From: a virus
DNA: 52,566 nucleotides
Direction: 5' to 3' (one strand)
IMG/VR virus record: IMGVR_UViG_3300048588_000115
Span: 1-52,566 of that record
In this document: positions 1 to 50,787 of the stretch, piece after piece
Numbering within the stretch: position 1 is the stretch's first letter
How the letters are laid out: each line of letters opens with the position of its first letter
The notes under the pieces: generated by a model
Databases searched by the model: none
Told to the model about the DNA's origin: nothing
The model's input: only the letters and a program-made list of their open reading frames with translations
Program-made: the position numbers and the translations under genes

Positions 1-127
1 TAAGCGGATTAATGCCAAGCAGTTGATGCGACGCTTCGCATGTGATCAAGCGTTGTCTGTTGCACATCTGCGTGAGCCCAATGCCGTTGTGGATAAGTAT
101 CTGCAAACGGCTGACCCTGCTTTGCGG
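1..127. repeat. 127-nt exact terminal identity (1-127 = 52440-52566), consistent with a circularly closed contig
   Basis: Read directly. Identity ends exactly at the window end. The same 127 nt also occur at 51036-51162 inside the paralogous gene, so the closure runs through a repeat. Confidence 0.9.
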
Positions 128-340
128 TATGCGGCGCGTAGCGCGGCATGGAATGCGGCATGGAATGCGGCGCGGTATGCGGCGTGGAATGCGGCGCGGT
201 ATGCGGCGTCGAGTGCGGCGTGGAATGCGGCGCGGTATGCGGCGTGGAATGCGGCGCGGTATGCGGCGTCGAGTGCGGCGTGGGATGCGGCAATGGAAGA
301 ATTTGATAAGCGTGTGTATGCTGTGTTTGGCTTGAATTAA
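2..340 (+). CDS. Ala/Trp 4-residue-repeat protein, paralog B, 3' part (5' part is 52192..52566)
   Basis: Frame is open from the window edge. [42 protein letters not shown] is followed by [16 protein letters not shown] repeats. Near-identical to 51036..51387. TAA at 338-340. Confidence 0.75.
   Translation, partial: KRINAKQLMRRFACDQALSVAHLREPNAVVDKYLQTADPALRYAARSAAWNAAWNAARYAAWNAARYAASSAAWNAARYAAWNAARYAASSAAWDAAMEEFDKRVYAVFGLN
128..292 (+). repeat. Coding tandem repeats with 12-nt period (GCGGCNTGGAAT / GCGGCGCGGTAT / GCGGCGTCGAGT)
   Basis: Visible by eye. 181-223 is repeated exactly at 241-283, giving a 60-nt higher-order unit. Confidence 0.85.
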
Positions 341-342
341 TA

Positions 343-777
343 ATGATAAAACACGATATTATTAAGTACACAACGCGTGTTCCTATTAGTTCTGTGCATA
401 CACCTAACCGGAGTGTAAGTGCAGAGCCAGCCTTGCATTGCCAAGCTGATCTAGATAATTGGATTAAAGATACAGAATTTCAAATTGGTAAATGGGTAAT
501 ATTTGGTTCTTCACAATTACAACGAAGTTATGCACATTCTGCTAAGGAAATTATTGCCCATCAAACAGACTACGATCAACTCCAACGACGTGCCTATCAT
601 CCATATCAACCACTTGTTATGTTTGTGCAGCCACTTGGACTAGATGCAAAGGGGGTTAGACTGGCACCTTTCTGGGAAGATGTCCGTGGACTATACGTTG
701 TAAATGACATCGATTACTTACAATACATTAAACCATTGTATGATCAAATACGATATCATAGTCAACCATCCACATGA
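343..777 (+). CDS. hypothetical protein
   Basis: 144-codon ORF starting 3 nt after the upstream stop. No motif recognised. Confidence 0.6.
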   Translation: MIKHDIIKYTTRVPISSVHTPNRSVSAEPALHCQADLDNWIKDTEFQIGKWVIFGSSQLQRSYAHSAKEIIAHQTDYDQLQRRAYHPYQPLVMFVQPLGLDAKGVRLAPFWEDVRGLYVVNDIDYLQYIKPLYDQIRYHSQPST

Positions 778-1042
778 TCAAAAGAACACAAAAGTAATTG
801 TCAAACCAGGTGACACAAACTTCCATGAAATAGTATTTCAACGTAACTTAAAAGCATGTCAATATACCGCTGGTCAGCGTGTAAAACAGCGGGGTGGTCA
901 TATTCGTGGTACAATTTTGTCTATTGAGCGTGACATAACTAAAATTAATTGGTCTAAACATAAACCAATGTTTGTCGAAGTGTTATTTGACGATAAAACA
1001 CATGTTCTTTGTAACCCAAGTCAATTGAAAAGGACTAAATAA
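704..1042 (+). CDS. hypothetical protein (start uncertain)
   Basis: 112-codon ORF overlapping the previous ORF by 74 nt. The only in-frame ATGs are at 704 and 740. Its stop overlaps the next start (TAATG 1040-1044). Confidence 0.45.
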   Translation: MTSITYNTLNHCMIKYDIIVNHPHDQKNTKVIVKPGDTNFHEIVFQRNLKACQYTAGQRVKQRGGHIRGTILSIERDITKINWSKHKPMFVEVLFDDKTHVLCNPSQLKRTK

Positions 1043-1371
1043 TGTATACAGCTTTCCCATGGGCCGTAATTCTTATGGGCGATACCATGATACTCGCTAC
1101 AGATGGACGAGATAACCGTGGTAATCGCATGCGAATGAACCAGCAAGTTGGCAAAAACACCGAGGCGTTTGAGTATCTTGGTGATATCAACGGACGTGCG
1201 GCAATTCATTGGTGTGAATCTGAGGATGCTGCACAGGCGGCAATTCGGACACTAAATCGTCTATTCCCTGCAAACGAATATGCGATTGTTCAGACAAAAG
1301 AGGTATGGGCTATTCCTAAGACGCCAGCCGTGCGTGCGGTCTATACAGAAAATGGATTGCTGCCAGCATGA
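1042..1371 (+). CDS. hypothetical protein
   Basis: 109-codon ORF coupled at both ends (TAATG upstream, ATGA downstream). Confidence 0.6.
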   Translation: MYTAFPWAVILMGDTMILATDGRDNRGNRMRMNQQVGKNTEAFEYLGDINGRAAIHWCESEDAAQAAIRTLNRLFPANEYAIVQTKEVWAIPKTPAVRAVYTENGLLPA

Positions 1372-2027
1372 GATTAGCCTCGGCTGTCTATAACGGAGCA
1401 TATCCGTTTGAAAACATGAATGGTGTGGCGAGCGTTGCACAGGTCGATCATCCAAGTGATCTAACAACCAATGATATCTTGATTATTTGGGGTGGTGGTG
1501 ATATTCATCCATCGCTCTATAATAAACTAGCTGCAAGTAAATCTGGTGCATATTTGCTGCCATCTCGTCGTGATGTGTGTGAGTGGGATTTGCTTCAACG
1601 TGCTATTAAATTAGGCATTCCAACCATTGGTATCTGTCGTGGAGCGCAGATGCTATGTGCGGTTGCCGGTGGCTATTTAATCCAGGATGTTACTGGGCAT
1701 GCAGGAAACAATCACGCTATTACCACGGTTAATGGGGATAGGTTACATGTAAATTCTATCCACCACCAAATGATGGCTCCGTGGGGTGTTGAGCATGAGC
1801 TATTAGCGTGGTCTTCTGACACGCTAAGTCGGCATTATCTAGATGTTACAGATGATGGTGTAGACTCACACGTGTCAGTACCATGTGAACCAGAGTTAGT
1901 CTATTTTCCTAAAGTGCGTGGACTTGCAGCACAATGGCATCCAGAAATGATGGATGAAAATTCTGCTGCAACCCAATATTTAATGAGTCATATTTACGAT
2001 AAATTCATGGTGATGGAGCATGCATAG
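1368..2027 (+). CDS. class I glutamine amidotransferase-like / peptidase C26 (gamma-glutamyl hydrolase, PuuD-like)
   Basis: ILIIWGGGDIHP, GICRGAQML (nucleophile-elbow Cys), IHHQ and WHPE (His-Glu) match the GATase1/C26 pattern. Confidence 0.7.
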   Translation: MRLASAVYNGAYPFENMNGVASVAQVDHPSDLTTNDILIIWGGGDIHPSLYNKLAASKSGAYLLPSRRDVCEWDLLQRAIKLGIPTIGICRGAQMLCAVAGGYLIQDVTGHAGNNHAITTVNGDRLHVNSIHHQMMAPWGVEHELLAWSSDTLSRHYLDVTDDGVDSHVSVPCEPELVYFPKVRGLAAQWHPEMMDENSAATQYLMSHIYDKFMVMEHA

Positions 2028-2337
2028 AATTCAATTACACGTTTTTGATGTTGAAAATCCAACTAGTGTGGAAATCAATGATGGAGATGCGTTTGACAAT
2101 ACAGAAAAAGTTGATACTTGGGGATATGCACCAACAATAGCTGGTTGTTGCGGTAGTGTACAATATACTACAATTAAAACAAACATTAACAACAAGGGTT
2201 GTATGCTGTCAATTACCGACCAGTGTGAGCGGGTCCCTGATGGAGTTGATTCCACTGAAAAACCATATTTTGTTGATAATGTTCAAGTTGGTGATAAATG
2301 GATTAATTTTCTATTGAGAGGCTCTCGTGGTAATTAA
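2020..2337 (+). CDS. hypothetical protein
   Basis: 105-codon ORF overlapping the upstream stop by 8 nt. No motif recognised. Confidence 0.55.
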   Translation: MHRIQLHVFDVENPTSVEINDGDAFDNTEKVDTWGYAPTIAGCCGSVQYTTIKTNINNKGCMLSITDQCERVPDGVDSTEKPYFVDNVQVGDKWINFLLRGSRGN

Positions 2338-2764
2338 AAGTGTTTATTTCAATAGCTTATTTTCAATTTTTGGATATGAGCTAAGTTTTATATTTGGATC
2401 AGACACTGTTACCAATCTATATAATCTTAATCTGTGGAAAACTAACTCATTTATGGCAATGGGCCATAACTTTATTTCTCCCTTTAGTGTCAATAGTCTA
2501 GAAGATATCACTATTGAGCTTCTAAAAAGTAAGTTTCAAAAGCGGCTTATAAACTACTACAATTACTATAAAGGAAAAGATGAGGCGCACATTTTCATCC
2601 TACGTGATGAGCAATTAAACATATTTAATGAGTTTTGTTTTGATATTCCACTTAATTCTTTGATTACCTATCAAAGCGATAAATTTGTTAATCGTAATTA
2701 CGATATTGAAGGGCGTAAACCATATTTGACCGTTTTGGTATTGGATTTTTCAAAGGAGAAATAA
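2327..2764 (+). CDS. hypothetical protein (very AT-rich gene)
   Basis: 145-codon ORF. Hand count of 2401-2460 gives 30% GC. ATAATG coupling to the next gene. Confidence 0.5.
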   Translation: MVIKSVYFNSLFSIFGYELSFIFGSDTVTNLYNLNLWKTNSFMAMGHNFISPFSVNSLEDITIELLKSKFQKRLINYYNYYKGKDEAHIFILRDEQLNIFNEFCFDIPLNSLITYQSDKFVNRNYDIEGRKPYLTVLVLDFSKEK

Positions 2765-3543
2765 TGTTTACACTTGGTGCTGATCCAGAACTATTTTTAG
2801 CTGATGCTGCTGGAAGCTATATTGCTTCTTGCGGTTTGTTTGGTGGAACAAAACTAATGCCGTCACCTATGGGCATTGGTGATGGCTTCATGCTTCAAGA
2901 AGATAATGTCGCACTAGAATTCAACATCCCGCCGGGTGACTCAAAAGCACAATTTGTTAATGCAATTAATCGTGCAATGTCACATTTATCGGACTTAGCC
3001 GCAAAGCATAAATTACATTTGATTAATAAAGCATCAGCGGTGTTCGATGAGTCACAGTTGTGGCACCCGTTGTCACGTGAATTTGGATGTGATCCTGATT
3101 TTGATGCATGGAAAAATGGAGAGAAAAATCCAAAGCCATCTTCTGCAAATAAATATTTGCGCTCATGTGGTGGACACGTCCATGTTGGTTACAAATTTGA
3201 GCAATATGACGACATAATCCGCTTTATTAAGTACATGGATTTGTTTACTATTGGTGCTGTTATTCTTGATAATGACACCGCGCGTAGGCAGCTTTATGGC
3301 AAGCCAGGAGCATTTAGGCCCAAACGATATGGCTGTGAGTATCGTAGCCTATCGAATTTCTGGGTGTTTGATCCAGCTATTACTGGTTGGGTTTGGGATG
3401 CAACCTCGGCAGCCATGAACGCATGGCAGAATAACTCTATTAGCATTGATGAGTTGGGTTCTGAATTACAAGCAGTAATTAACAATAATGATAAGACAAC
3501 TGCACGCCAGTTTGTTGATGCATATCAATTACCAATGATCTAA
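2764..3543 (+). CDS. carboxylate-amine (COOH-NH2) ligase, GS/GCS fold, phiEco32-type
   Basis: GADPELF near the N-terminus, EDNVALEFNIPP, GGHVHVG and CEYRS. This is an E-x-E / H-x-H / R pattern typical of glutamine-synthetase-fold ligases. Family assignment is from memory of the phage COOH-NH2 ligase family. Confidence 0.6.
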   Translation: MFTLGADPELFLADAAGSYIASCGLFGGTKLMPSPMGIGDGFMLQEDNVALEFNIPPGDSKAQFVNAINRAMSHLSDLAAKHKLHLINKASAVFDESQLWHPLSREFGCDPDFDAWKNGEKNPKPSSANKYLRSCGGHVHVGYKFEQYDDIIRFIKYMDLFTIGAVILDNDTARRQLYGKPGAFRPKRYGCEYRSLSNFWVFDPAITGWVWDATSAAMNAWQNNSISIDELGSELQAVINNNDKTTARQFVDAYQLPMI

Positions 3544-4163
3544 TGAAAGACACTTTTTCTTCCACCAATTTTCGTGATTGGGCGGGCCGCTATGAAGGAA
3601 CATTTGGCTGGTTGCTACAAGGTGAGCACAAGCTGCTTGTACAGCTTATTGATCACTCGAACACACACGTATACTTCATAACGGAACCAGAAGGTATGCG
3701 TTTCCACGCAAAGATTGATAGTGGTGTGCAGTTTGAGTTTATGCAGGTCGATCATGCATGGATTAATACTGATAAAGAAGATGAAATTTATCTTCTTGCA
3801 CGTAATCCTCAAAAGCAGTGGAGACGCGGGGTGCACTCCAACAATACAATTATCCGTAAGCCATCTCCACGTGGATTACGTGATATTGCCGTGACATTAC
3901 CTCATCTACAGCGTGTTTATTCCGATGTGTCGAATAGTTATCGTCGGAAGTATCCTGTGACACCATCTTCATGCGTTGCAATATCACGTGCTTTTGCAAT
4001 TGCATATGGGGAACTATATCTTTATGAGAGAGTAATTGGGGCACTAGAAGGTCGTGTCCTAAAATTATTTGACACTGCAAGTATTGTGGCACAAGAATTA
4101 CGTGACGCGATTAATCGAAATAACTTTATTGATGAGTTTATGTTGGAGATAACTAGTGAGTGA
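3543..4163 (+). CDS. hypothetical protein embedded in the ligase cassette
   Basis: 206-codon ORF, TAATG-coupled upstream, overlapping the downstream start by 8 nt. Confidence 0.6.
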   Translation: MKDTFSSTNFRDWAGRYEGTFGWLLQGEHKLLVQLIDHSNTHVYFITEPEGMRFHAKIDSGVQFEFMQVDHAWINTDKEDEIYLLARNPQKQWRRGVHSNNTIIRKPSPRGLRDIAVTLPHLQRVYSDVSNSYRRKYPVTPSSCVAISRAFAIAYGELYLYERVIGALEGRVLKLFDTASIVAQELRDAINRNNFIDEFMLEITSE

Positions 4164-5160
4164 CACAATTATTAAGATTATGGGATTTGACCCGGTGGCT
4201 GCTTGGACTTCTAACAAAGTGACGCCACATCATAATCCTGTGCCATCATTGTTGTATGGTTTAGAGCTAGAGATCGAGAGCGCGAATCCAGAGTGGGTTG
4301 TACCGGGTATGCTTGTAGAAACTGATGGATCACTGCGGAATAATGGCTTTGAGTTTATTTTGAAGCCAATGACGTATAGTCATGTCCAATATGTTCTTGA
4401 GAACTTCTTTAAAAAGAGTAATGTTAATACTACAAACTATACAGAACGCTGCTCAACTCATGTGCATATCAATGTGCAAAACCTAACACTAGAGCAAGTG
4501 GCAAATATTTGTCTTGTGTACCAGGTGTTTGAGCGTGTATTGTTTAATTGGGTAGGCGAAGGACGAAGTAAGAATATCTTTTGTGTGCCTTGGTATGATA
4601 CGTTGCTTACATATCAAGCGTGCTACACTCTTGTTGAAAAGAAATCGATGCCCAATTGGCAGAAATACACAGCCCTTAATCTTCTTCCAATGAGTTCTAT
4701 CGGAACTATCGAATTTCGTCATTTGGAAGGTACAAATAATATTCCACGCATTATGTTGTGGTGCCGCTTGATTGGCTGTATCTATAAGATTGCTACCGAA
4801 CTCGATCATAAAACACTGCTAAATCGGTTTATGCTCCTAAATACTAATTCTCAATATGCAGATATGCTGCAAATTGTGTTTGGTGACGATGCAGCGGAAC
4901 TACGTATTGGTAATTTCCATGAATTAATGGAAGATGGTGTCCTCCGCATGAAATATTCAATGTTAAACCCATCCCCAAAAAAGTTAAGTAATAAAATTCA
5001 TATTGGTGATAATGAATTACATGATTGGATTGCTAATCTTAGTGTCGCACGGCCTGATCTAGTAATACGCAATAACTGGAATATTGAAGCACCAACGTAT
5101 ATACAGGAAACACCTACCGCAATGATTTTGGATGATTTTCATACTGAGGATAACGAATAA
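4156..5160 (+). CDS. putative amidoligase (Amidoligase_2-type, GS fold)
   Basis: Motifs GLELEIES, ETDGSLRNNGFEFILKP, STHVHINV and IEFRHLEGT. Confidence 0.65.
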   Translation: MSDTIIKIMGFDPVAAWTSNKVTPHHNPVPSLLYGLELEIESANPEWVVPGMLVETDGSLRNNGFEFILKPMTYSHVQYVLENFFKKSNVNTTNYTERCSTHVHINVQNLTLEQVANICLVYQVFERVLFNWVGEGRSKNIFCVPWYDTLLTYQACYTLVEKKSMPNWQKYTALNLLPMSSIGTIEFRHLEGTNNIPRIMLWCRLIGCIYKIATELDHKTLLNRFMLLNTNSQYADMLQIVFGDDAAELRIGNFHELMEDGVLRMKYSMLNPSPKKLSNKIHIGDNELHDWIANLSVARPDLVIRNNWNIEAPTYIQETPTAMILDDFHTEDNE

Positions 5161-6443
5161 TGTGTGGGATTGTAGGAATGCTTTCTCCATGGAAAAATGG
5201 TTTCCAAACGGATGAAATGGACACGTTTAAAGACATGTTATTTATTGACACACTACGTGGTTGGGATAGCACGGGTGTGTTTAGTGTGACAAATAATAAG
5301 AACGTACATATTGTTAAGGGAGCTATGCATGGCGCTGATTTTATCCGCAGCAGTGACTTCTCATCGTGGAAACAATCGACATTTTTGAATGGGCTATTTA
5401 TGGTTGGGCATAATCGTGCTGCCACAAAAGGCTCGGTGAGTGACGAAAATGCACATCCATTCTGGATTGATGATAAGATTGTATTAGTTCAAAATGGAAC
5501 ATACTATGGCGATCATAGTCATTTAAAGGATACTGAAGTTGATACCGAAGCGGTCGCACATGTAATTGCTGAACATGATGACATTGCTGAAGCATTACAA
5601 AAGATTAATGCCGCATATGTATTGGTGTGGTATAATGTCGACACTGGGTGTTTGCATATCATCCGTAACGATCAACGACCACTATATCTTGCTTACACTA
5701 GCACGAATGGCATCATTTTTGCATCTGAAGAGTCTACGATTATGTATGCGGCTTATCGTAATAAGCTTAAATTAAAGTCTCCGCCTAAGATGTTGGCGAC
5801 CAGTACTTTATATACATATCGTATTAATTCACGCAATACCTGGGAAGAGGAGGAAGAAGAAATTGATGCCAAATTTCGTCACTCCAATACGAAGACTTAT
5901 GAGAGCACTCCTATTAAAGAGTGGGACTGGGATGAGTGGACGAGTATGAGGTATGGACCTAATGCCCCAGGCCATCAAAGCACGCATAAAGATCCTATTG
6001 TGGATAAGCGTGATAATTCACAGATCACGATTTATGATATTATTCAGAAAGGCGACGCAAAAGATTTTGCACTTACACAAAAGCAGAAACTATATTGGTC
6101 TAACCACATTACTGAGAATCGTGCTGGCACACTGCCGATTGAATTCCATGATTATGTTGCATTAAATGATGAAAAGGATTGTCGTCGTTGGATGGTGATT
6201 GGTAAAATCATCTCGCCATATGAGGATGGAGAGATGGGGTCACCCTTGGTGTATGGTTTTATCTTTGATCAAGATGAAATGTATATGCTTGAGTATGTTG
6301 ATCATGCACTATATACTGGTCGCAGTCCTACTGCTGGTATAATTCACAATGTTAATTGGGGTCACCATGATCATTATCAGGTTTATACTGTGTTTGTCAC
6401 TGACCTAGTTCCTATTCAATTGGTCGATCACGTTGCACAATAA
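5160..6443 (+). CDS. class II (Ntn) glutamine amidotransferase-domain protein
   Basis: MCGIVGM N-terminus (Cys nucleophile exposed after Met removal) and HNRAATKG. TAATG coupling at both ends. The C-terminal ~200 aa are unassigned. Confidence 0.75.
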   Translation: MCGIVGMLSPWKNGFQTDEMDTFKDMLFIDTLRGWDSTGVFSVTNNKNVHIVKGAMHGADFIRSSDFSSWKQSTFLNGLFMVGHNRAATKGSVSDENAHPFWIDDKIVLVQNGTYYGDHSHLKDTEVDTEAVAHVIAEHDDIAEALQKINAAYVLVWYNVDTGCLHIIRNDQRPLYLAYTSTNGIIFASEESTIMYAAYRNKLKLKSPPKMLATSTLYTYRINSRNTWEEEEEEIDAKFRHSNTKTYESTPIKEWDWDEWTSMRYGPNAPGHQSTHKDPIVDKRDNSQITIYDIIQKGDAKDFALTQKQKLYWSNHITENRAGTLPIEFHDYVALNDEKDCRRWMVIGKIISPYEDGEMGSPLVYGFIFDQDEMYMLEYVDHALYTGRSPTAGIIHNVNWGHHDHYQVYTVFVTDLVPIQLVDHVAQ

Positions 6444-7159
6444 TGTACACAAAACCATTTTATATTGTTGTTAATCCCACTGGATCGAAGTTTGCTAAGA
6501 CACTACAGAGTGCACTAAGAGCTACTGTCACAAACTCGATTTATCGACGATTAACTCCACGACAATTACGCAATAATTTCATTGTTACTACTACCACACT
6601 AGATAAAATCCAACAATTAACACGTTTTAAGGAACATAATGTCCCACATCCAAGCTTTGAAACAGATCGCAGCCGACTGCGCGACACTGGCAAACAAATT
6701 TGGTTTGCGCGCACTCTCATCAAAGCCACTAACGGAAGAGGAATTGTGGAGTTTGATTTGCGAAGTGAACGAGATATCCCAGTCGCTCCTCTCTACACGG
6801 AATACATCCCAAAAAGAGCCGAGTATCGCTTCCACGTCTTCAACGGAAACGTAATTGATGTACAGGAAAAAAGAAAGAAGCGCGACTTTGGGGATGGTAG
6901 GAACACTCGCGTTCGGAATGTTAACAATGGTTATGTATATTGTCGTGATGCTGTCAATCCTCCTGATGGCGCTGCCGATATCGCTGTACGTGCAGTGCAA
7001 GCAGTTGGCTATCAATATGGCGCAGTGGATCTCATCTATAATGAGCATCGAAATCAGTGCTATGTCCTTGAAGTTAACTCGCGGCCTGGACTTATGGGTA
7101 CAACGATTGACAAATATGTTGAAGCGCTGATTAACCAGTATGATCTTAGGAGAAAATAA
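6443..7159 (+). CDS. ATP-grasp family ligase
   Basis: GRGIVEF, YTEYIPKRAEYRFHVFNG and YGAVDLIY...CYVLEVNSRPGL (E-x-N metal/ATP site). Confidence 0.75.
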   Translation: MYTKPFYIVVNPTGSKFAKTLQSALRATVTNSIYRRLTPRQLRNNFIVTTTTLDKIQQLTRFKEHNVPHPSFETDRSRLRDTGKQIWFARTLIKATNGRGIVEFDLRSERDIPVAPLYTEYIPKRAEYRFHVFNGNVIDVQEKRKKRDFGDGRNTRVRNVNNGYVYCRDAVNPPDGAADIAVRAVQAVGYQYGAVDLIYNEHRNQCYVLEVNSRPGLMGTTIDKYVEALINQYDLRRK

Positions 7160-7386
7160 TGTCGATGCATAAAGGTATGATTGGTAAGATTGGTCCTGCA
7201 AGTGTAGATGTGACTCTTGGTGATTACATTGCACGTAAGCAGCAAGCTGCCGCATTTGATTCTGTTGCACAAGAGAATAAGCTGTCATTTGAACAATGGT
7301 TTAAGCAAATTAATGAACAACATGGTTTGCCACCTGCATATACACTTGCTAAGTGGGCGTGGCGAGCCGGTCAGGAGAATAAATGA
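7159..7386 (+). CDS. hypothetical protein
   Basis: 75-codon ORF, TAATG-coupled upstream and ATGA-type overlap downstream. Confidence 0.55.
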   Translation: MSMHKGMIGKIGPASVDVTLGDYIARKQQAAAFDSVAQENKLSFEQWFKQINEQHGLPPAYTLAKWAWRAGQENK

Positions 7387-7601
7387 TGTATAAACTTCTT
7401 AATTTACTATTTGGATGGGATTATATCCATTGGTCGAATAGTGCCGCTAGTGGTATTGCACGTGTTATAGCGTTACCAAGTGGTGAAATAGCTTACTGGC
7501 GTTATCGAAACATTAGTGTAATGGATGTAATCGAGAAGCCAACACAAGTTCGCTGGCTGACATGTCCACCAACTAAATATTTTCCTACGGAGAATAAATA
7601 A
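7383..7601 (+). CDS. hypothetical protein
   Basis: 72-codon ORF. Its stop overlaps the next ATG (TAATG at 7599-7603). Confidence 0.55.
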   Translation: MMYKLLNLLFGWDYIHWSNSAASGIARVIALPSGEIAYWRYRNISVMDVIEKPTQVRWLTCPPTKYFPTENK

Positions 7602-7768
7602 TGCAGCATACATATACTCAATTTAATGGGAATCTTGAGCTATATAATGATCCTCGTTATATCGCTGCTAACAACGCGTTTTATGCTGCAATTGAGTTAC
7701 TAAAGCAGTGTGGTATGGAACATAATCAAGCCTGCAATTGGATGAAATCCTGGGGCTATCAGGACTGA
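7601..7768 (+). CDS. hypothetical small protein (55 aa, below the ORF-track cutoff)
   Basis: Hand-translated: MQHTYTQFNGNLELYNDPRYIAANNAFYAAIELLKQCGMEHNQACNWMKSWGYQD. It fills the gap and is coupled to the upstream stop. Confidence 0.5.
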   Translation: MQHTYTQFNGNLELYNDPRYIAANNAFYAAIELLKQCGMEHNQACNWMKSWGYQD

Positions 7769-7777
7769 GACTGAATA

Positions 7778-7948
7778 ATGGAATTGTTTATTCCATATGG
7801 GTACACACCATACGAAGGAAATATACATTACGGTGTGTTTAATACGCGAGAGCAAGCTGAGGCAGTGCTATCCGAAGAACGCTCTTATAATTACTATGAG
7901 TCATATGAAATTTTCGTCACCAAACTTAATATTAAGGATCTTTTCTAA
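7778..7948 (+). CDS. hypothetical small protein (56 aa)
   Basis: Hand-translated: MELFIPYGYTPYEGNIHYGVFNTREQAEAVLSEERSYNYYESYEIFVTKLNIKDLF. TAATG overlap with the next gene. Confidence 0.5.
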   Translation: MELFIPYGYTPYEGNIHYGVFNTREQAEAVLSEERSYNYYESYEIFVTKLNIKDLF

Positions 7949-8160
7949 TGCGCTGCCAATGTTGTAATTCTAATCTCTCTGACTATGAGAGTGTGCTAAG
8001 GCACCCTGAAACACTTGAGTATCTTGATATTTGTCGTAAATGTCTTAAAGATATTCCAATTAATCCTCTTGTTCCTGCCGATTTAGTTGAAACCAGCGAC
8101 CCAGATGAATTCAGCTTTGATGATGATATGTATATAGAGGATGATGAAGATGACGAATAA
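7948..8160 (+). CDS. small zinc-ribbon-like protein with a poly-acidic C-terminus
   Basis: CQCC...CRKC cysteine pairs. The C-terminus is DPDEFSFDDDMYIEDDEDDE. Confidence 0.55.
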   Translation: MRCQCCNSNLSDYESVLRHPETLEYLDICRKCLKDIPINPLVPADLVETSDPDEFSFDDDMYIEDDEDDE

Positions 8161-8512
8161 GCTTGAGATTAAATCGTGGCCTCGATTTTATGACTATCGT
8201 ACTAATTATAATGGTGATCCGGTTGAAGACTACGACTGGAAATATGATTGGGAAGAAAATTGGGAGATGGACTACGAGATTCCACACTTTTGTTACTGTT
8301 GTGGCGCTGCTATTAGGGGTGAAACTACAAATAAGTCGCAGCCATTACTTCGTCGTGGTATCACTATTCATGCTGGATTTTTAGGTAAACCTGGGATAAA
8401 AGAGGTTAAATCTACAGATTTTGAGACTAAAAAAGTAACTGTTGATATTCAGCATATTCAAACAAAGGCGGGGCCTTTGACGTGTGTAATTGCATTACCA
8501 ACGGAGAAATAA
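8141..8512 (+). CDS. hypothetical protein
   Basis: 123-codon ORF with a 20-nt overlap upstream. Confidence 0.55.
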   Translation: MMKMTNKLEIKSWPRFYDYRTNYNGDPVEDYDWKYDWEENWEMDYEIPHFCYCCGAAIRGETTNKSQPLLRRGITIHAGFLGKPGIKEVKSTDFETKKVTVDIQHIQTKAGPLTCVIALPTEK

Positions 8513-8778
8513 TGTCATTAATTTCTTGCTCATTTTACGATACGATTTTTCTTACATATCCTAAAATGACGCCTAGTTGGGCACATAATTTTGTAAAGAA
8601 TAATGTTGATACATATTGTTTAATTTTTGGACCAGCACAACATGATTGTTTACACAATGTCATCGAACTAATTAACAGTAGTAATGGTAAAGTGCTATAC
8701 CAATCACCACGCGCTATTAATTATAATTATGACTATGATATTGACCGTAACACGTTACTAATATTTGAATTTGACTAA
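8512..8778 (+). CDS. hypothetical protein
   Basis: The ORF track gives 8482. ATG 8512 overlaps the upstream stop (TAATG) and is preferred. Confidence 0.5.
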   Translation: MSLISCSFYDTIFLTYPKMTPSWAHNFVKNNVDTYCLIFGPAQHDCLHNVIELINSSNGKVLYQSPRAINYNYDYDIDRNTLLIFEFD

Positions 8779-9499
8779 AGCATATCATTATGAGCCATGC
8801 CCACGATGTCGTGAATTAGGTAATGATAATCGAGGAGATAATCTTGTTGTTTACTCCAATGGGCATAGCCATTGCTTTGCTTGTGGCTATCATAATTATC
8901 CAAAATATCATAAACCAACTACGCAAGAAGTATCTAATGTCCCAAAAAGTGTGCGCCCTTCTGACTTCACCAGAGAAGTCCCAGTTGAAGGATGGCAATG
9001 GCTCCTCCAATATGGACTCCCATACAGCCACTGGAAAGACTGTACCGGCTATTCTGAAGAAGCCGGACGAAGGCTTGTTTTCGAGGTTTCTGACAACGGC
9101 CGAGTGGCCTTTTCCATCGGACGACTGCTCGACGAAGCAACCAAACACTCAAGAAAATGGTATGTGTGGGGGGACTCACACAAGCACTGTCATGTTGTTG
9201 GACAAGGACGTGGTACAAGCACACTTCTGGTTGAAGACCTTATCTCTGCCCACAAAGTCGGAGAAGTAACCGAGGCGATACCTTTGTTTGGTACCACAAT
9301 TCACCCCTGTCATTTGTACTATTTAATGACAAATAACAGGCCCGTTGTGTTGTGGCTTGACAAAGACCAGGAGTTACATGTAAAGAAAAAAGCTCTACAG
9401 TTAGAGAGCTTGATTGATAAATCTGTTAAGATTATTACGACTGATAAAGATCCAAAAGCATTATCTTTTACACAAATAAAGGAATTAACAAATGAATAA
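8765..9499 (+). CDS. DNA primase (zinc ribbon + TOPRIM)
   Basis: CPRCRELG...HSHCFACGYH zinc ribbon, then TOPRIM-like LLVEDLISAHKV and VLWLDKDQ. Only TTG (8765 or 8771) is available as a start. Confidence 0.7.
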   Translation: MNLTKAYHYEPCPRCRELGNDNRGDNLVVYSNGHSHCFACGYHNYPKYHKPTTQEVSNVPKSVRPSDFTREVPVEGWQWLLQYGLPYSHWKDCTGYSEEAGRRLVFEVSDNGRVAFSIGRLLDEATKHSRKWYVWGDSHKHCHVVGQGRGTSTLLVEDLISAHKVGEVTEAIPLFGTTIHPCHLYYLMTNNRPVVLWLDKDQELHVKKKALQLESLIDKSVKIITTDKDPKALSFTQIKELTNE

Positions 9500-9740
9500 A
9501 TATACAAAATATCTTGGTGCACTACTTGTGCTTGTAGCAACAAATGCTGGTAATTTTTACTTCACAAAAAGCCATTATTATATGGCTGGAATGCAGGACT
9601 ACCATGGTGCTTGCTACTTTGTTCCTGGTGCAAGGCTTGACAACGACACAGGAACTGTGGTATACTGTTACCCGCTCGGTCAAGCAGACCCACGACAGCT
9701 TGAGCAAGAGCGTAAAAACACAGAGAAAAATACTACTTGA
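9492..9740 (+). CDS. small membrane protein, hypothetical
   Basis: The N-terminus YLGALLVLVATNAGNFYF is hydrophobic. ATGA overlap with the primase gene. Confidence 0.55.
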   Translation: MNKYTKYLGALLVLVATNAGNFYFTKSHYYMAGMQDYHGACYFVPGARLDNDTGTVVYCYPLGQADPRQLEQERKNTEKNTT

Positions 9741-9765
9741 CAAAGTAGGAAAAGTGTGTTATACT
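9737..9765 (+). promoter_or_regulatory. sigma70-type promoter: TTGACA-17 nt-TATACT with a TG extended -10
   Basis: TTGACA at 9737-9742 and TGtTATACT ending at 9765. AGGAG follows at 9782-9786. It lies at the start of a very AT-rich tract. Confidence 0.6.
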
Positions 9766-9794
9766 AAAAATATATAAACATAGGAGTATTATAT

Positions 9795-11054
9795 ATAATA
9801 CCTATTAAACAATTAATTATATTATTACTAAGTAAAGATAACTATAATAAATATAAAGACTTAGTAGATAATAAACATATAAAAGAAGTTTATAGAGAAT
9901 TAAGTTATATATATTCTTCTTTATGTGAATTACATGAGAAATATCCAAACAATGATATTTCCTTTGATGAGCTAGAAGCTTTCTTTTGGGTAAAGTACCC
10001 TACCGCTGACAAGGCTCTATACGCCAGCCTGCTTAAAAGCCTCTCAGAGCTGAAAATTTCGGATGAGGTAGGGCAGGGTATCATGTTGGAAATTAAAACG
10101 CGGGGTGATGCCTTAAAACTCTCGGAAGAGGCATACAAGGTAGCGCAGGGCCTTGCCGATCTAGAACATCTTCAGAATTTCTACTCTGAAGCCTTTGAGA
10201 AGGTCGATCACACAGCACTTGCTGATGAGATTACCGATGTTAATACTGTATTTATGGAGTTAATGTCTAATGCAGACACCAAACAAGGGATTAGATGGAG
10301 ACTTGACTGCCTTAACAAATCTTTGGGAAGTCTCAGGAGAGGTGATTTTGGATTCATCTTTGCACGCCCTGAGACTGGAAAAACTACTTTCCTTGCAAGC
10401 GAGGTATCTCACTTCCTTACAGACACAGGTGCGGCGCAGCGCGCGATTATCTGGCTCAATAATGAGGAGCAAGGATACAAAGTAATGTGTCGTGTGCTTC
10501 AGGCATACTTTGGCATTACTAATGATGTCCTTCTAAGTAATCTTAAACACTATTATGAGCGTTTTAATCACGAAACGTTCAACCGATTCAAACTATTTGA
10601 TGCAGCAACTATCAACAAAAGTGAAATCCTACGTCTTATCGAAAAATATGACCCCGGACTCGTGGTATATGATCAGATCACAAAGATTAAAGGCTTTAAG
10701 GCAGACCGCCAAGACCTTATGCTCGGAGAAATCTGTCAATGGTCTAGAGAACTTGCTAAAGGAGGTCACGCAGCCATCGGAGTATCACAAGCTGACGGAA
10801 CCGCAGAAGGTGTACGTTACCTCACTATGGAGCACGTTGCCAACGCTAAGACTGCTATGCAAGCTGAGGCAGACTTCATTCTAGGTATTGGTAAGATCAA
10901 CGATCCAGTGCAAGAATATATTCGCTTTCTTAACATCAGTAAGAACAAGCTATTTGGTGACACTGACTCTATTCCTGATCTTCGCCATGGTCGTTTTGAA
11001 GTGATGCTTGAGCCTCAAATAGCAAGATATAAGGACATTATTAAATTTGACTAA
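9795..11054 (+). CDS. DnaB/gp4-like replicative helicase (minimal ATG-initiated version is 10083..11054)
   Basis: Walker A GFIFARPETGKTTF and Walker B LVVYDQ. The frame is stop-free from 9768 with protein-like sequence, but has no ATG/GTG/TTG before 10083. ATA at 9795 lies 8 nt after AGGAG. The extended product is 419 aa. Confidence 0.6.
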   Translation: MIPIKQLIILLLSKDNYNKYKDLVDNKHIKEVYRELSYIYSSLCELHEKYPNNDISFDELEAFFWVKYPTADKALYASLLKSLSELKISDEVGQGIMLEIKTRGDALKLSEEAYKVAQGLADLEHLQNFYSEAFEKVDHTALADEITDVNTVFMELMSNADTKQGIRWRLDCLNKSLGSLRRGDFGFIFARPETGKTTFLASEVSHFLTDTGAAQRAIIWLNNEEQGYKVMCRVLQAYFGITNDVLLSNLKHYYERFNHETFNRFKLFDAATINKSEILRLIEKYDPGLVVYDQITKIKGFKADRQDLMLGEICQWSRELAKGGHAAIGVSQADGTAEGVRYLTMEHVANAKTAMQAEADFILGIGKINDPVQEYIRFLNISKNKLFGDTDSIPDLRHGRFEVMLEPQIARYKDIIKFD

Positions 11055-12190
11055 TGGAAAACATTTTAACATTTGACGTTGAAACCACTACATTTAACAA
11101 AGGACATCCTTTTGACAAAAGAAACAGTTTGGTCAGCTATGCTGAGCTATCTGGCAAACCCGATCCTAGTTTTAAATACTATCTCGATCCTGATTTTAAT
11201 AATTATCTCGCTGCTTGTGTGGATGATGCTGACATATGTGTGGGCTTTAACATTAAATTTGATTTTCATTGGCTATTTAATCTATTTCCTACGACAGATT
11301 TATCTAGAGTTAAAGTATGGGATTGCCAATTAGCAGAATTTATTTACTCTGGACAAGAAGCGCGTTATGCGTCACTTAATGAAACGTGTGAGAAGTATGG
11401 CCTACCAACTAAAATTGATTTGGTGGCGGATTACTGGTCACGCGGAATCGATACCAAAGACATTCCAGTGTCCATTCTTGAAGAGTACAATAAGTGGGAC
11501 GTGCAACTTACCAAAATGCTCTATGATGTACAACAACAACTGCTTAGTGAAAAGCAGAAAAGATTGGTGTGGTTACTAGGTGAAGACCTCAAGGCGCTAC
11601 AAGCTGCCGAGTATGCTGGTATTAAGTTTGATACTGACAAAGCACTTGCAACAATTGCGCAATATAAGGCTGACTTGGAAAGTATTGATCGTGATCTTTC
11701 TCAGTTTCTGCCTGATGGGATTCCTGAAGGCTGCTTTAATTACAATTCTGGGGATCATTTAAGTGTATTGCTCTACGGCGGGACGTTATCGTTTGATTGG
11801 GCCATTGAAGAACCAGCCGTATACAAGTCGGGGGAAAAGAAAGGTCAAGAATATATACGTCGACGGTGGCAAACTACACCCATTCAGTTTCAACAACACT
11901 TTAAACCGTTACCGGGAACAGAGGTTGCTAAAACTGCTAAACTCCCAGACGCGAAGCAACGCTTCTATCAAACTGACCAACCAACGTTCGCACAACTTAA
12001 GACGAAGAAACGTGAAAGTAAGTTACTATTGGAGTTGCTTACGATCCGTGCCAACAAGATTAAAGTGGTGGGAATGATTGAAAGTGTATTAAATTTGTTT
12101 GAAAATAAGCATTGGGCCGATGACTATATTCATGGGCAATTTAATCAAAATGTGGTAGTTACTGGTAGATTGAGTAGTTCTGCGCCTTAA
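11054..12190 (+). CDS. family-A DNA polymerase, exon 1 / N-terminal part (3'-5' exonuclease and start of the pol domain)
   Basis: Exo I motif FDVETT. It ends ...VVVTGRLSSSAP and then TAA, which is inside the conserved T-G-R-L-S-S-x-x-P-N-L-Q-N-I-P motif. Confidence 0.85.
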   Translation: MENILTFDVETTTFNKGHPFDKRNSLVSYAELSGKPDPSFKYYLDPDFNNYLAACVDDADICVGFNIKFDFHWLFNLFPTTDLSRVKVWDCQLAEFIYSGQEARYASLNETCEKYGLPTKIDLVADYWSRGIDTKDIPVSILEEYNKWDVQLTKMLYDVQQQLLSEKQKRLVWLLGEDLKALQAAEYAGIKFDTDKALATIAQYKADLESIDRDLSQFLPDGIPEGCFNYNSGDHLSVLLYGGTLSFDWAIEEPAVYKSGEKKGQEYIRRRWQTTPIQFQQHFKPLPGTEVAKTAKLPDAKQRFYQTDQPTFAQLKTKKRESKLLLELLTIRANKIKVVGMIESVLNLFENKHWADDYIHGQFNQNVVVTGRLSSSAP

Positions 12191-12886
12191 CAGATAGGGC
12201 GCTTTAAACCGTGTGAATTCATGGAAAGCCCAGAACGGGTAACCATGAGCCAAATTAACCAATCTACCTTCGGAGGTACATGTGGACATTAAGTATTTAA
12301 TTGAGAATACAGAATTAACACAAGCACAAATCGGTGCTGTGTTCGGATTATCACAAAAACAAGTGTCTAAATATATAAAAAGACACTATTCAAGCGAGTT
12401 TCGTAAGCACAGAAAAGTTAAATGCTATCGAAATTCAAAACTCGGAGATAAAAATCCGATGTTTAACATGCTTAAAGAAGATCATCACAATTATATCGGC
12501 GTTGTGTCAGACAACAAAGGTTATTGGATGATGTTGAAGCCAGAATGGTATACTGGTAGAAAGCGCAGCAAGCATGTGTTTGAGCATCATATTGTTGTTT
12601 GTGAGAATCTTGGTATTACAGAAATTCCGAAAGGGTTCTCTGTTCACCATTGTGACCATAATCCACGTAATAATTCCTTTAATAACTTAGTGTTGCTCCG
12701 TATGGGTGATCATACTCGTCTACACGGCGCATTAAAAGGTGCAACGACTATCTCGAAAGAGAGTACACTCAAGTGGGTGGAAGCGCACGGCACGCCTTGG
12801 TCGCGTGATGATATAGTCTCATCTGCATGGGGACATGCAGCAGCATATAGCGGGCAGGAAGTAACGACTCCTGCTGAAGATAAATG
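12188..12886 (+). mobile_element. putative group I intron carrying an HNH homing endonuclease ORF
   Basis: The 5' exon ends in U (12187). GCGCCU 12182-12187 pairs with GGGCGC 12197-12202, a P1 helix with a U-G wobble at the splice site. The last intron nt, 12886, is G. Joining 12187 to 12887 restores ...RLSSSAP-NLQNTP. Confidence 0.6.
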
Positions 12887-12887
12887 A
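12282..12887 (+). CDS. HNH homing endonuclease
   Basis: GTG start 5 nt after GGAGG. HHCDHNPRNNSFNNLVLLRMGDHTRLH is an HNH motif. The N-terminal HTH-like segment is LTQAQIGAVFGLSQKQVSKYIK. Confidence 0.8.
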   Translation: MDIKYLIENTELTQAQIGAVFGLSQKQVSKYIKRHYSSEFRKHRKVKCYRNSKLGDKNPMFNMLKEDHHNYIGVVSDNKGYWMMLKPEWYTGRKRSKHVFEHHIVVCENLGITEIPKGFSVHHCDHNPRNNSFNNLVLLRMGDHTRLHGALKGATTISKESTLKWVEAHGTPWSRDDIVSSAWGHAAAYSGQEVTTPAEDK

Positions 12888-13103: not shown

Positions 13104-13813
13104 TCAATGCCGATGTAAAAAGCCTTGAGGTATTTGTAGCAGCAGATCGATATGATGATAAAACCTTACAGTCTGAGCTTCTTAACCGCTTGGACCTTCA
13201 TGCGCTCAACCAAGAAAAGTTTGCATTACCAGACCGAGTTACCGCCAAGCGTTTCATCTTCAAGCTCTTATATGGAGCGACTGCCTATGGCTATTCGGTG
13301 GATTCAGACTTTATCAACGTTGGCTTTAGTGAAAAGCAATGGCAACGAGTTATTGATGTGTTCTACACAAAATATGATGGGATCGCCAAAGGACATATCG
13401 CTGACATAAACTACGCTAAAGAAAACGGATATCTGGAAATTCCGTCCGGTAGATACTACAACTTTGAGCCAAAGAAAACATCTTATGGATATAAGTGGCC
13501 GTTAACACTGATTAAAAACTACCCTATTCAGGGGTTTGGCGCTGATCTTGTGATGCTTGCTCGTATTGAGTTTTTCCGTCGGCTTAAGGCGTCAGGTTTA
13601 CCAGCAGATTTTATTTGTACGGTGCATGACTCATTAGTAGTTGACACACCCGACGAACTGTGTTATAATATTAGTACGATGTTAAAAGATTCAATCGAAC
13701 TGGTTCCAACACTCTGCCGTCAGGAATTCGACTATGAGTTCAAGTTACCAATTTGGTGTGAGATAAGTGTAGGTCCAAACAAACGCGATCTACAAGAGAT
13801 TAAACTTAATTAA
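13085..13813 (+). CDS. family-A DNA polymerase, C-terminal part (palm and fingers)
   Basis: The frame opens at 13085. NADVKSLEVFVAAD resembles motif A, RVTAKRFIFKLLYGATAYG resembles motif B, and ICTVHDSLVVD resembles motif C. There is no ATG or GTG; the first TTG is at 13190, after motif A. Confidence 0.8.
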   Translation, partial: GVLESLINADVKSLEVFVAADRYDDKTLQSELLNRLDLHALNQEKFALPDRVTAKRFIFKLLYGATAYGYSVDSDFINVGFSEKQWQRVIDVFYTKYDGIAKGHIADINYAKENGYLEIPSGRYYNFEPKKTSYGYKWPLTLIKNYPIQGFGADLVMLARIEFFRRLKASGLPADFICTVHDSLVVDTPDELCYNISTMLKDSIELVPTLCRQEFDYEFKLPIWCEISVGPNKRDLQEIKLN

Positions 13814-20300: not shown

Positions 20301-20337
20301 TTGGGGAAGTGATTGGGTAGATGATGGAGTATAAACT

Positions 20338-20784: not shown

Positions 20785-20808
20785 AAGGGGCCTTTCGGCC
20801 CCTTTTTA
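20783..20808. terminator. bidirectional rho-independent terminator between the convergent arms
   Basis: AAAA-GGGGCC-TTTC-GGCCCC-TTTTT: a perfect 6-bp GC stem flanked by an A-tract and a T-tract. Confidence 0.85.
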
Positions 20809-49033: not shown

Positions 49034-49040
49034 GCATCCT

Positions 49041-49927: not shown

Positions 49928-49984
49928 AATGGCAAAGAAAACAGTGCAAGAAATGATTACCGTGATATCGGGAGAAATCAAATG
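49928..49984 (+). CDS. 18-codon mini-ORF sharing its RBS cassette and MAKK start with the repeat-protein paralogs
   Basis: TAAACAGGAGTAAAGCAATGGCAAAGAAA is identical to the 50772-50799 context. ATGA overlap with the next gene. It may be a recombination remnant. Confidence 0.3.
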
Positions 49985-50326
49985 AAGCTAGCTGTGTATG
50001 GTACTTTACGTAGCGGTGAAGTACGCGGGCCTGTACTTGCTGATTACCCGTGTCTTGGGACATTCCGCACGGATTCATGTCACACTATGTACGACTTGGG
50101 TGCATATCCTGCTGTTAAAAACGAAGGGGATTCTCCTATCGTTGTGGAGTTGTATGAAGTTGATGACGATGCCATGGCAATCTGTGATAGGATTGAAGGT
50201 GTCTCGTTTGGGCTTTATAAACGAGACATTGCTTACGTAAACGGAGAACACGCAACGATCTACACCTATCTACACGATACAGCTGATGACCGTGTGATTG
50301 CATCAGGAGACTGGTGTAATCGTTAA
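49982..50326 (+). CDS. gamma-glutamylcyclotransferase (GGCT/AIG2-like) family protein
   Basis: N-terminal LAVYGTLRSGE and later VELYEV...IEG...Y.R fit the AIG2/GGCT pattern. Confidence 0.6.
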   Translation: MKLAVYGTLRSGEVRGPVLADYPCLGTFRTDSCHTMYDLGAYPAVKNEGDSPIVVELYEVDDDAMAICDRIEGVSFGLYKRDIAYVNGEHATIYTYLHDTADDRVIASGDWCNR

Positions 50327-50774: not shown

Positions 50775-50787
50775 CAGGAGTAAAGCA

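Follow-up and report, generated by a model that had tools for sequence, protein, structure and literature searches.

The viral DNA analysed here, IMG/VR record IMGVR_UViG_3300048588_000115 (52,566 nucleotides over its full length, called the window below), carries a block of five predicted amide-bond enzymes and three interleaved open reading frames (ORFs), which we judge, on balance, to be probably a module in which amide bonds of the gamma-glutamyl type are formed and trimmed on a cytoplasmic acceptor. The ORF listing showed that eight co-directional plus-strand ORFs fill positions 1368-7159, exactly where an earlier note made from the sequence had placed them, and every motif quoted there was found in the translations. 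The five enzyme families named in that note were upheld by Pfam and PHROG profile searches, and the catalytic residues proved to be conserved in all five enzymes as well as in a gamma-glutamyl cyclotransferase-like protein (GGCT) of the same genome. These features are listed below, with the E-values of the family matches in brackets.

1368..2027, plus strand: C26, Peptidase C26/class I amidotransferase-like protein of the gamma-glutamyl hydrolase type (PF07722, 2.3e-19; phrog_7218, 6e-31)
2020..2337, plus strand: U1, ORFan of 105 aa in a variable slot, overlapping the C26 gene by 8 nt
2327..2764, plus strand: U2, ORFan of 145 aa with a GTG start, in the same variable slot between C26 and CNL
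2764..3543, plus strand: CNL, phiEco32-type COOH-NH2 ligase with a fold like that of glutamine synthetase and glutamate-cysteine ligase (GS/GCS2-like) (PF14395, 2.5e-8; phrog_3815, 1.2e-68)
3543..4163, plus strand: U3, 206 aa, fold unassigned, no Pfam family; counterpart of phiEco32 gp85, LUZ24 gp17 and PA11 gp006
4156..5160, plus strand: AL2, Amidoligase_2-type GS-like ligase (PF12224, 1.6e-6; phrog_7469, 6.9e-36)
5160..6443, plus strand: GAT2, class II (N-terminal nucleophile, Ntn) glutamine amidotransferase, 427 aa (GATase_6/7, 4.6e-14; phrog_4736, 1e-59, residues 1-252 only)
6443..7159, plus strand: short RimK/LysX-like ATP-grasp ligase, 238 aa (PF08443, 5.7e-5; phrog_2599, 7.3e-41)
49982..50326, plus strand: GGCT, GGACT/AIG2-like gamma-glutamyl(amine) cyclotransferase (PF06094, 3e-16; phrog_2520)

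Architecture of the Block and of the Genome

The two ends of the record carry an exact direct repeat of 127 bp (window 1-127 = 52440-52566), and on account of this terminal overlap the contig is taken to be complete, either circular or terminally redundant, with a length of about 52.4 kb. The genome layout is that of a LUZ24-like podovirus, with an early/replication set on the plus strand (primase, DnaB-like helicase, a DNA polymerase split by an HNH endonuclease, exonuclease, dCMP deaminase and ribonucleotide reductase (RNR)) and the structural genes on the minus strand. When the larger plus-strand genes were searched with PHROG profiles, primase, helicase, DNA polymerase, exonuclease, dCMP deaminase, RNR and phosphoesterase were returned.

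The genes of the block had been described as joined by TAATG or ATGA throughout. The tight coupling is real, and TAATG accounts for four of the seven internal junctions, but the remaining three are overlaps of 8, 11 and 8 nt, two of them with GTG starts. At the edges of the block, the gene at 1042-1371 is joined via ATGA (a 4-nt overlap) and the ORF at 7159-7386 via TAATG, and the overlaps over all junctions range from 1 to 11 nt. Window 1-10000 showed no excess of sigma-70-like promoters or intrinsic terminators over shuffled sequence, and strong promoter-like sites (11/12 matches, with TG) begin only downstream of the block, at 9637-9765. The ATP-grasp gene ends at 7159 and the primase gene starts at 8765.

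A megablast search of the block against cultured phages gave no match, and the best protein identities to cultured phages, as determined in the CNL and AL2 searches, were 43% or less. Identity of the window CNL to IMG/VR relatives reached 55%, and in the IMG/VR clade around the window the RNR was 75-87% identical in the best 80 of 554 related stretches. None of the cassette proteins had a match in the PADLOC defence library.

Distribution and Gene Order Across Phages

The distribution of the cassette was determined with iterated local hidden Markov models (HMMs) in a set of 54 loci (50 from IMG/VR, three from GenBank and the window), and counts in cultured phages were obtained by tblastn against the INPHARED collection. 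CNL had a match in all 54 loci, AL2 and GAT2 in 53 each, the ATP-grasp ligase in 47 and C26 in 45; the co-occurrence across phages that the earlier note had named as a check was thus found, with CNL, AL2, GAT2 and ATP-grasp occurring together in 47-53 of the 54 loci. CNL is the anchor gene of the cassette. Cultured phage records with a match numbered 314 for CNL and 322 for AL2, and the two sets agreed almost completely in their hosts, which by CNL/AL2 counts were Pseudomonas (121/119), Escherichia (94/93), Vibrio (22/21), Aeromonas (11/11), Proteus (8/8), Salmonella (7/7) and Cronobacter (6/6). In addition, a scan of prokaryotic genomes, one per species, gave just 53 loci among 185,579 species, nearly all of them on contigs of metagenome-assembled genomes (MAGs) and many phage-sized; given this rarity, the ligase family is considered essentially phage-restricted. 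CNL, AL2, GAT2 and ATP-grasp also occur together in most of the MAG loci that are long enough to judge. Since the same genes lie together in more than 100 independent loci, their clustering is far beyond chance.

The order CNL-U3-AL2-GAT2-ATP-grasp of the window is identical in phiEco32, LUZ24, Alcaligenes phage QDWS535 and about 30 IMG/VR loci, which confirmed the attribution to a phiEco32-like cassette. In phiEco32 the order is gp86 (CNL), gp85, gp84 (AL2), gp83 (GAT2), gp80 (ATP-grasp), gp77 (GGCT) and gp75 (primase); in LUZ24 it is gp16 (CNL), gp17, gp18 (AL2), gp19 (GAT2), gp21 (ATP-grasp), gp22 (GGCT) and gp24 (primase). In QDWS535, where genes 39-45 make up the cassette, the string reads GGCT ... 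C26 ... CNL, hypothetical protein, AL2, GAT2, ATP-grasp ... primase, and PA11, with its cassette at gp001-gp008, is rearranged to C26 ... GAT2, CNL, gp006, AL2, ATP-grasp ... primase. Compared with the cassettes of phiEco32 and LUZ24 (Kuravirus and Bruynoghevirus), the window has the same families, the same order and the same position 5' of primase/helicase, and its GGCT gene likewise belongs to the early/middle block. Its proteins share no more than 45% identity with those of any cultured phage. It differs from the two cassettes in the additional C26 gene and the two ORFans between C26 and CNL, and in that GGCT lies upstream instead of after the ATP-grasp gene. Two of its enzymes are shorter than those of phiEco32, the ATP-grasp ligase with 238 against 397 aa and the class II amidotransferase with 427 against 676 aa.

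At least four arrangements were seen. Arrangement A is that of the window. Arrangement B runs ATP-grasp, C26, CNL, GAT2, a long AL2 and a second GAT2, and arrangement C runs (GGCT), C26, GAT2, CNL, U3, AL2 and ATP-grasp. A minimal arrangement D (CNL, C26, x, GGCT, x, second C26) was found in six loci, namely L234 (7912-14858), L241 (3274-10066), L224, L230, L232 and L233. In these, a small ORF and a 457-aa Pol-beta-type nucleotidyltransferase-like protein (GDLDI motif, weak PolyA_pol match) lie between C26 and GGCT, a second small ORF lies between GGCT and the second C26, and there is no Amidoligase_2, class II amidotransferase or ATP-grasp gene. Two of the six, L234 and L241, are preceded by a T4 Rnl1-like RNA ligase (PF09511 3e-21 in L234); the RNA ligase of L241 is 30% identical to that of L234 (E 2e-43).

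The distance from the cassette to the primase/helicase genes, which lie 3' of it, is 0.4-3 kb in five genomes. The annotations of PA11 and UFV-P2 give p48 of the LUZ24-like phage PaP3 as the CNL homologue and p47 as the U3 homologue. The middle genes of PaP3 are ORF22-56, with the primase as ORF40 (PMC4707531), and since the homologues p44-p48 fall within ORF22-56, the cassette would, by gene numbering, be among the middle genes of that phage. Directed evolution of the Bruynoghevirus FJK gave missense changes in the amidoligase and class II amidotransferase genes in both evolved lines (PMC11450229), and these parallel changes speak for a functional relevance of the cassette.

To call the block novel would be too strong, given that Pfam and PHROG names exist for the families and that about 315-320 cultured phage records carry them. 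The cassette is a known and widely conserved module, and the window holds a divergent copy of it and not a new kind of system; it contributes limited information beyond that of any other member. The module is among the most widespread multi-enzyme modules of lytic phages without an assigned function.

Neighbourhood and host range bear on a first alternative, in which the cassette modifies a cell-wall precursor, with the UDP-MurNAc-pentapeptide or lipid II stem amidated or extended as a barrier to superinfecting phages or lytic enzymes. Pairs of a ligase and an amidotransferase (MurT/GatD, AsnB-type) are known to amidate stem peptides, such precursors receive amino acids from ATP-grasp ligases, and the cassette proteins all look cytoplasmic, as are the precursors. 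A change of the cell wall that prevents superinfection is given in PMC10580990, with reference to Iyer 2009, as the proposal for phiEco32. The searches with Pfam and PHROG found no Mur-ligase, lipid II-binding or membrane protein in the cassette; co-expression with replication genes and the constant neighbourhood of primase do not point to the envelope; and the hosts assigned by binning (among them Saccharibacteria and Bacteroidota MAGs, possibly an archaeon) differ in their walls. We therefore hold this alternative to be unlikely.

Two GS-Like Ligases

The CNL match to PF14395 scored 33.9 bits against a Pfam gathering cut-off of 25, and the motifs GADPELF and GGHVHVG were read in the translation. 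Residues K30, Q45, D47, E52, R133, H138, H140, R174, R185, E192 and R194 are invariant, and E9, which is at least 90% conserved across homologues, is also present in the window. The AL2 match to PF12224 scored 28.6 bits (gathering cut-off 22), its translation contains GLELEIES, STHVHINV and EFRHLEGT, and nine residues (E37, E39, D57, E66, H102, H104, R137, E186 and R188) are 100% conserved in 53 homologues. Sequence searches of the PDB returned no relative for either ligase.

Class II Amidotransferase and ATP-Grasp Ligase

GAT2 begins with the motif MCGIVGM, and in 109 sequences C2, R33, D36, H84-N85-R86, N112-G113 and D128 are invariant or nearly so. The hallmarks of a class II enzyme are therefore in place, i.e., M1-C2, the Asn-Gly oxyanion hole (N112-G113) and the glutamine-binding residues R86 and D128. 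An AlphaFold2 (AF2) model was confident, with a predicted local distance difference test score (pLDDT) of 89.6, and consisted of an Ntn domain (1-240), a disordered linker (245-285) and a compact C-terminal domain (290-420), which was itself modelled at high confidence. The top PDB matches in Foldseek were the glutaminase domains of GlmS and PurF, and EgtC, all to the N-terminal domain. Beyond residue 254 no Pfam or NCBIfam match was obtained, and no synthase/acceptor domain of the SIS, phosphoribosyltransferase or AsnB type was found there. In residues 286-427, Y332, C341 and E373 are nearly invariant. The order of elements in the modelled C-terminal domain, b1-b2-b3-a-b4-b5, and weak Foldseek matches in BFVD to phage single-stranded DNA-binding proteins (SSBs) and CcmE (E 0.01-0.06) suggest, as a lead, a small barrel like the oligonucleotide/oligosaccharide-binding (OB) fold in place of a known synthase domain.

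The ATP-grasp ligase contains the motif EVNSRPGL and has conserved K55, E127, R129, K143, D196 and E210, of which K55, K143, D196 and E210, together with the motif LEVNSRPG, correspond to the Mg/ATP-binding residues of the family. The PHROG name of the family, RimK (the S6 glutamate ligase), was rejected as an identification, given that the protein is only 238 aa long and that its NCBIfam matches to the MptN and RimK families reached 15-31 bits against equivalog/subfamily cut-offs of 143-350 bits.

The putative OB-like domain is relevant to an alternative in which the cassette acts on nucleic acid. DNA bases, tRNA or aminoacyl-tRNA would receive an amino-acid or amide group, with binding through the OB-like domain and evasion of host nucleases as the benefit. 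The cassette adjoins the replication genes and is probably co-expressed with them, the topology and SSB-like matches of the GAT2 C-terminal domain agree with such a role, and on two contigs that share about 30% identity arrangement D lies beside a T4 Rnl1-like RNA ligase and a Pol-beta-type protein. We know of no hypermodified DNA in LUZ24, PaP3 or phiEco32; the OB evidence is weak, and the RNA-ligase neighbourhood is limited to one lineage. Amidoligase and amidotransferase genes do accompany thymidine-hypermodification genes in viromes (Lee et al., 2021, PMC8989533). Unlike those clusters, the larger plus-strand genes of the window, as searched with PHROG and with the small ORFs scanned in part, include no dUMP hydroxymethylase, 5-hydroxymethyldeoxyuridine (5-hmdU) DNA kinase, aGPT-Pplase or DpdA. 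Taken together, we regard a nucleic-acid modification as quite improbable.

Optional Trimming Enzymes

The motifs GICRGAQ and WHPE are present in C26, and its triad, C90, H191 and E193, is 100% conserved in 40 homologues and aligned with that of 3fij, which along with 7d4r is its best PDB relative; the PDB relatives are of the C26 type. The closest named NCBIfam model is gamma-glutamyl-CDP-amidate hydrolase, matched well below its cut-off, and the gamma-glutamyl-gamma-aminobutyrate (GABA) hydrolase model gave a weak match. Besides the 45 of 54 loci mentioned above, C26 is present in 34 of the 53 MAG loci, and its profile detected nothing in LUZ24 or phiEco32. The view of C26 as a member of the cassette thus stood as regards its family and triad, but not as regards constancy: C26 is a recurrent yet optional partner.

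GGCT scored 60.5 bits with PF06094 (cut-off 22.8) and retains the YGxL motif (Y6, G7, L9) and the catalytic Glu, E72. Because the contig is circular, its gene lies about 3.5 kb 5' of the C26 gene on the same strand, and the stretch from GGCT to C26 is mostly plus-strand coding. The GGCT and ATP-grasp genes overlap in LUZ24, L217, L227 and L249, with both gene orders seen; GGCT is embedded in the cassette of L013, forms part of arrangement D, and is near the cassette in phiEco32, QDWS535, L042 and L043. A distance of 10 kb or less from the cassette was found in 5 of 53 IMG/VR or GenBank loci and in 11 of 53 MAG loci. The suggestion that GGCT belongs to the same chemistry was borne out by these adjacent and embedded copies, and GGCT is functionally linked to the cassette where present, outside the core. 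In the window, the GGCT gene is flanked by tRNA-Leu(taa) at 49620-49704 and tRNA-Met(cat) at 50337-50412, the latter beginning 11 nt past the GGCT stop.

The trimming enzymes also bring up the reading that these are loose auxiliary metabolic genes, which raise the turnover of host glutamine, glutamate and glutathione as a nitrogen supply and have no dedicated product. A glutaminase, a gamma-glutamyl hydrolase and a GGCT would all free glutamate or 5-oxoproline, and papers on such phages commonly use the auxiliary-metabolic label (PMC10580990). Catabolism needs no three ATP-consuming ligases, however, and the ligases are phage-specific, without close cellular housekeeping counterparts. In addition, the genes are strictly inherited together with a non-enzymatic partner and are translationally coupled, which favours a dedicated pathway, and we give the auxiliary-metabolic reading hardly any credence.

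U3 and the ORFans U1 and U2

The three interleaved ORFs had been grouped as unknowns, but they are not equal: U3 is part of the core, and U1 and U2 have no relatives in the searched loci. U3 matched a syntenic and equal-sized protein of QDWS535 with an E-value of 1e-7, and it was found with the iterated HMM in 30 of 54 loci and with a deeper HMM in six more, always in the gap between CNL and AL2; in the MAG set it was detected in 24 of 53 loci. HMM matches to LUZ24 gp17 (E 1.3e-3) and PA11 gp006 (4.6e-7) were obtained, and an hhalign comparison of the U3 profile with phiEco32 gp85 gave a probability of 78% and an E-value of 1.9e-5 over 139 columns, taking in the N-terminal motif DF-x-x-Y-x-x-T as well as R-x-P-x-R-Q. 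A HMMER scan of 1.84 billion cluster representatives yielded 498 relatives, all of them stand-alone without fusions, and the matched proteins were full-length, of about 165-215 aa; a word-indexed protein search yielded one, later nine, and tblastn gave no match. The profile found no Pfam family and no PDB sequence relative, and it matched weakly two PHROGs, both without a function. Conservation is strongest in R-x-P-A-R-Q-W-x-R-G and in a Gly and a Glu near the C-terminal helix. An AF2 model built from the 9-sequence alignment was unusable (pLDDT 40). In the arrangement ATP-grasp-C26-CNL-GAT2-AL2-GAT2, a fusion of U3 into the long AL2 proteins was not detectable by HMM. By these sequence comparisons, U3 is a core member of the cassette.

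For U1 and U2, no family match was obtained in Pfam, PHROG or NCBIfam, and neither the IMG/VR loci collected with the ligases as bait, nor the four complete phage genomes, nor IMG/VR pattern scans yielded a homologue. The gap between C26 and CNL measures 0 to about 1.3 kb in relatives, and the two ORFans are read as lineage-specific inserts outside the conserved chemistry.

The HslV-Like Peptidase and Protein Tagging

The genome also encodes an Ntn peptidase that the earlier note had tentatively drawn into the same chemistry:

20338-20784, plus strand: HslV-like Ntn peptidase (phrog_1040, 1.5e-28)

The gene follows RNR in 41 of 80 clade relatives. Its profile found no match in phiEco32, LUZ24, PA11, QDWS535 or any ligase-baited locus except the window, and tblastn and an IMG/VR pattern scan with the protein gave no match. 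Among six contigs with both cassette and RNR loci, the gene is present in three and missing from three, two of which contain the full 3 kb of downstream flank. Since no copy was found with the cassette outside the clade, and even inside the clade its presence varies, there is no link between the peptidase and the cassette, and the claim of a shared chemistry was dropped.

The HslV-like ORF (window 20326-20784) has the hallmark Thr-Thr-Ile N-terminus with no ATG, GTG or TTG before Thr-Thr. The codon at that place is ATA (20338), with GGAG 8 nt 5' of it; the next canonical start, ATG at 20365, would remove the catalytic Thr, and in relatives the residue directly before the two Thr is M, L or I. 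These features suggest that the gene starts at a non-canonical codon.

Both U3 and the peptidase enter into a third alternative, protein tagging akin to pupylation or to the action of RimK, with a host or phage protein, possibly U3, as acceptor and with C26, GGCT or the HslV-like peptidase reversing or processing the tag. PafA/Dop, which have a GS fold, and RimK/LysX are known to modify proteins. U3, which has no catalytic signature, sits between the two ligases, and the HslV-like peptidase has an intact Thr-Thr N-terminus. The pupylation system (PafA/Dop/Pup/proteasome), and the bacterial peptide tagging predicted by Iyer et al. (2009), resemble the window in having two paralogous GS-fold enzymes and an Ntn peptidase in the genome. 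The likeness ends with the tag and the peptidase. No small disordered tag gene is conserved, U3 with its ~200 aa is no Pup-like small tag and no other small ORF is conserved, and the peptidase is not co-inherited with the cassette. A specific candidate, U3 as a carrier or tag with a C-terminal Glu like Pup or LysW, was rejected on the grounds that the C-termini are variable and have no acidic or GGQ/GGE end. We consider protein tagging improbable.

A broader version, to which we likewise assign a low probability, holds that the five-gene core is a phage-specific machine for modifying macromolecules and no metabolite pathway. Recruitment of the ligases to nucleic acid or a specific protein would fall to U3 and the OB-like domain, a gamma-glutamyl or amide mark would guard against host defence, and C26 and GGCT would erase or mature that mark. 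The targets, if this were true, would be tRNA, aminoacyl-tRNA, replicating DNA or protein, and the mark would be previously undescribed.

Proposed Function of the Cassette

The present analysis sets a minimal five-gene core that includes the overlooked U3, and splits off the optional trimming enzymes. Five catalytically intact amide-bond enzymes and the non-enzyme-like U3 are co-inherited even between very distant phages. Within the GS/GCS fold, the characterised enzymes known to us (GS, GshA/YbdK/EgtA, PuuA, PauA, PafA) activate the gamma-carboxyl of glutamate; enzymes of the C26 family (PuuD, gamma-glutamyl hydrolase), GGACT and stand-alone Ntn enzymes (EgtC) cleave gamma-glutamyl-N bonds; and ATP-grasp enzymes of the RimK, LysX and MptN type join the amine of an amino acid to a carboxylate of a glutamyl-bearing substrate.

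In the gamma-glutamyl module that we favour, the block would act as one functional unit, a translationally coupled operon expressed with the replication genes. CNL and AL2 would each activate a carboxylate, by fold precedent the gamma-carboxyl of glutamate, and link the resulting acyl-phosphate with an amine or with ammonia, and the RimK/LysX-like enzyme would add a further amino acid, probably glutamate. GAT2 may supply glutamine-derived ammonia to a ligase, by a logic of the MurT/GatD type, or may cleave a gamma-glutamyl-N bond as EgtC does, and its OB-like C-terminal domain may dock the enzyme on the acceptor or on a partner protein. U3 would be a specificity, scaffold or acceptor subunit. 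Where present, C26 and the GGACT-like enzyme would strip gamma-glutamyl groups, and the glutamyl unit would then serve only for a time, as a handle or a protecting group, much as it does in the Puu, ergothioneine and butirosin pathways. Overall, a gamma-glutamyl or peptidyl amide conjugate of small size would be made; polyamines and other small amines head the list of candidate acceptors, followed in rough order by cell-wall precursors, proteins and nucleic acids.

Several known systems show parts of this logic. PuuA/PuuD and the Pau/Spu systems of Pseudomonas pair a GS-fold ligase with a Peptidase C26 hydrolase, as does the window, and the C26 relative 7d4r is a P. aeruginosa 'probable glutamine amidotransferase'. 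They differ from the cassette in that no oxidase or aldehyde dehydrogenase gene was found among the scanned cassette and larger window ORFs, in that the phage ligases belong to PF14395 and PF12224 and not to the PuuA family, and in the extra two ligases, the class II amidotransferase and U3. The repeated pairing of ATP-grasp and GGCT genes mirrors butirosin biosynthesis, where BtrJ (ATP-grasp) and the cyclotransferase BtrG handle a removable gamma-glutamyl protection, and the combination of a GCS-like ligase with a stand-alone class II Ntn enzyme is found again in ergothioneine biosynthesis (EgtA and EgtC). The cassette has no carrier protein, pyridoxal phosphate enzyme or sulfoxide synthase, and so the logic is shared without the pathways being homologous.

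A number of points weigh against the gamma-glutamyl proposal. The searched literature reports no substrate or product for the cassette, as the earlier note had supposed, and the searchable papers since the comparative-genomic description of 2009 name no product. The choice of the glutamate gamma-carboxyl would follow by analogy only, from precedent within the GS/GCS superfamily; for PF14395 and PF12224 no solved structure of any member was found, and we know of no biochemical characterisation of either family. The OB-fold call leans on topology and on the Foldseek matches with E-values of 0.01-0.06, and the role given to U3 is a guess, because its structure prediction failed. Many cassettes lack C26 and GGCT, which means that the core reaction cannot depend on trimming, and for 70 phage GGCT genes no gene of the cassette lies within 3 kb.

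Other Features of the Window

Directly upstream of the block lies a small gene:

1042..1371, plus strand: 'pre', small gene of 109 aa, ATGA-coupled to the C26 gene and lineage-specific

Of the 54 loci, 13 have this gene directly 5' of C26, and Pfam and PHROG searches assigned it to no family.

The family A DNA polymerase is encoded in two ORFs (11054-12190 and 13190-13813) with the HNH endonuclease gene (12282-12887) between them; LUZ24-like phages likewise have annotated split polymerases. A Peptidase_M15 gene (VanY/L-Ala-D-Glu peptidase-like; 20806-21189, minus strand), probably the endolysin, adjoins the HslV-like gene at the convergent junction of two transcription blocks. Near the ends of the record, a paralogous pair of ORFs (approximately 52117 through the junction to 340, and 50749-51387) contains arrays of the 12-nt repeat GCGGCGTGGAAT at 143-291 and 51178-51342, in 12-14 copies that code for tetrapeptide repeats. 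One of the paralogues has a DUF7666 domain (6e-9) and the other spans the circular junction. Three islands on the minus strand (33342-35785, 43769-45343 and 48326-49246) are GC-rich, at 0.58-0.61 against about 0.42 for the genome. Two of them encode Gly/Ala/Thr/Ser-rich structural proteins that resemble tail fibres or depolymerases and may be of horizontal origin, and the 306-aa ORF at 48326-49246, oddly rich in Leu, Gly and Arg, may be non-coding.

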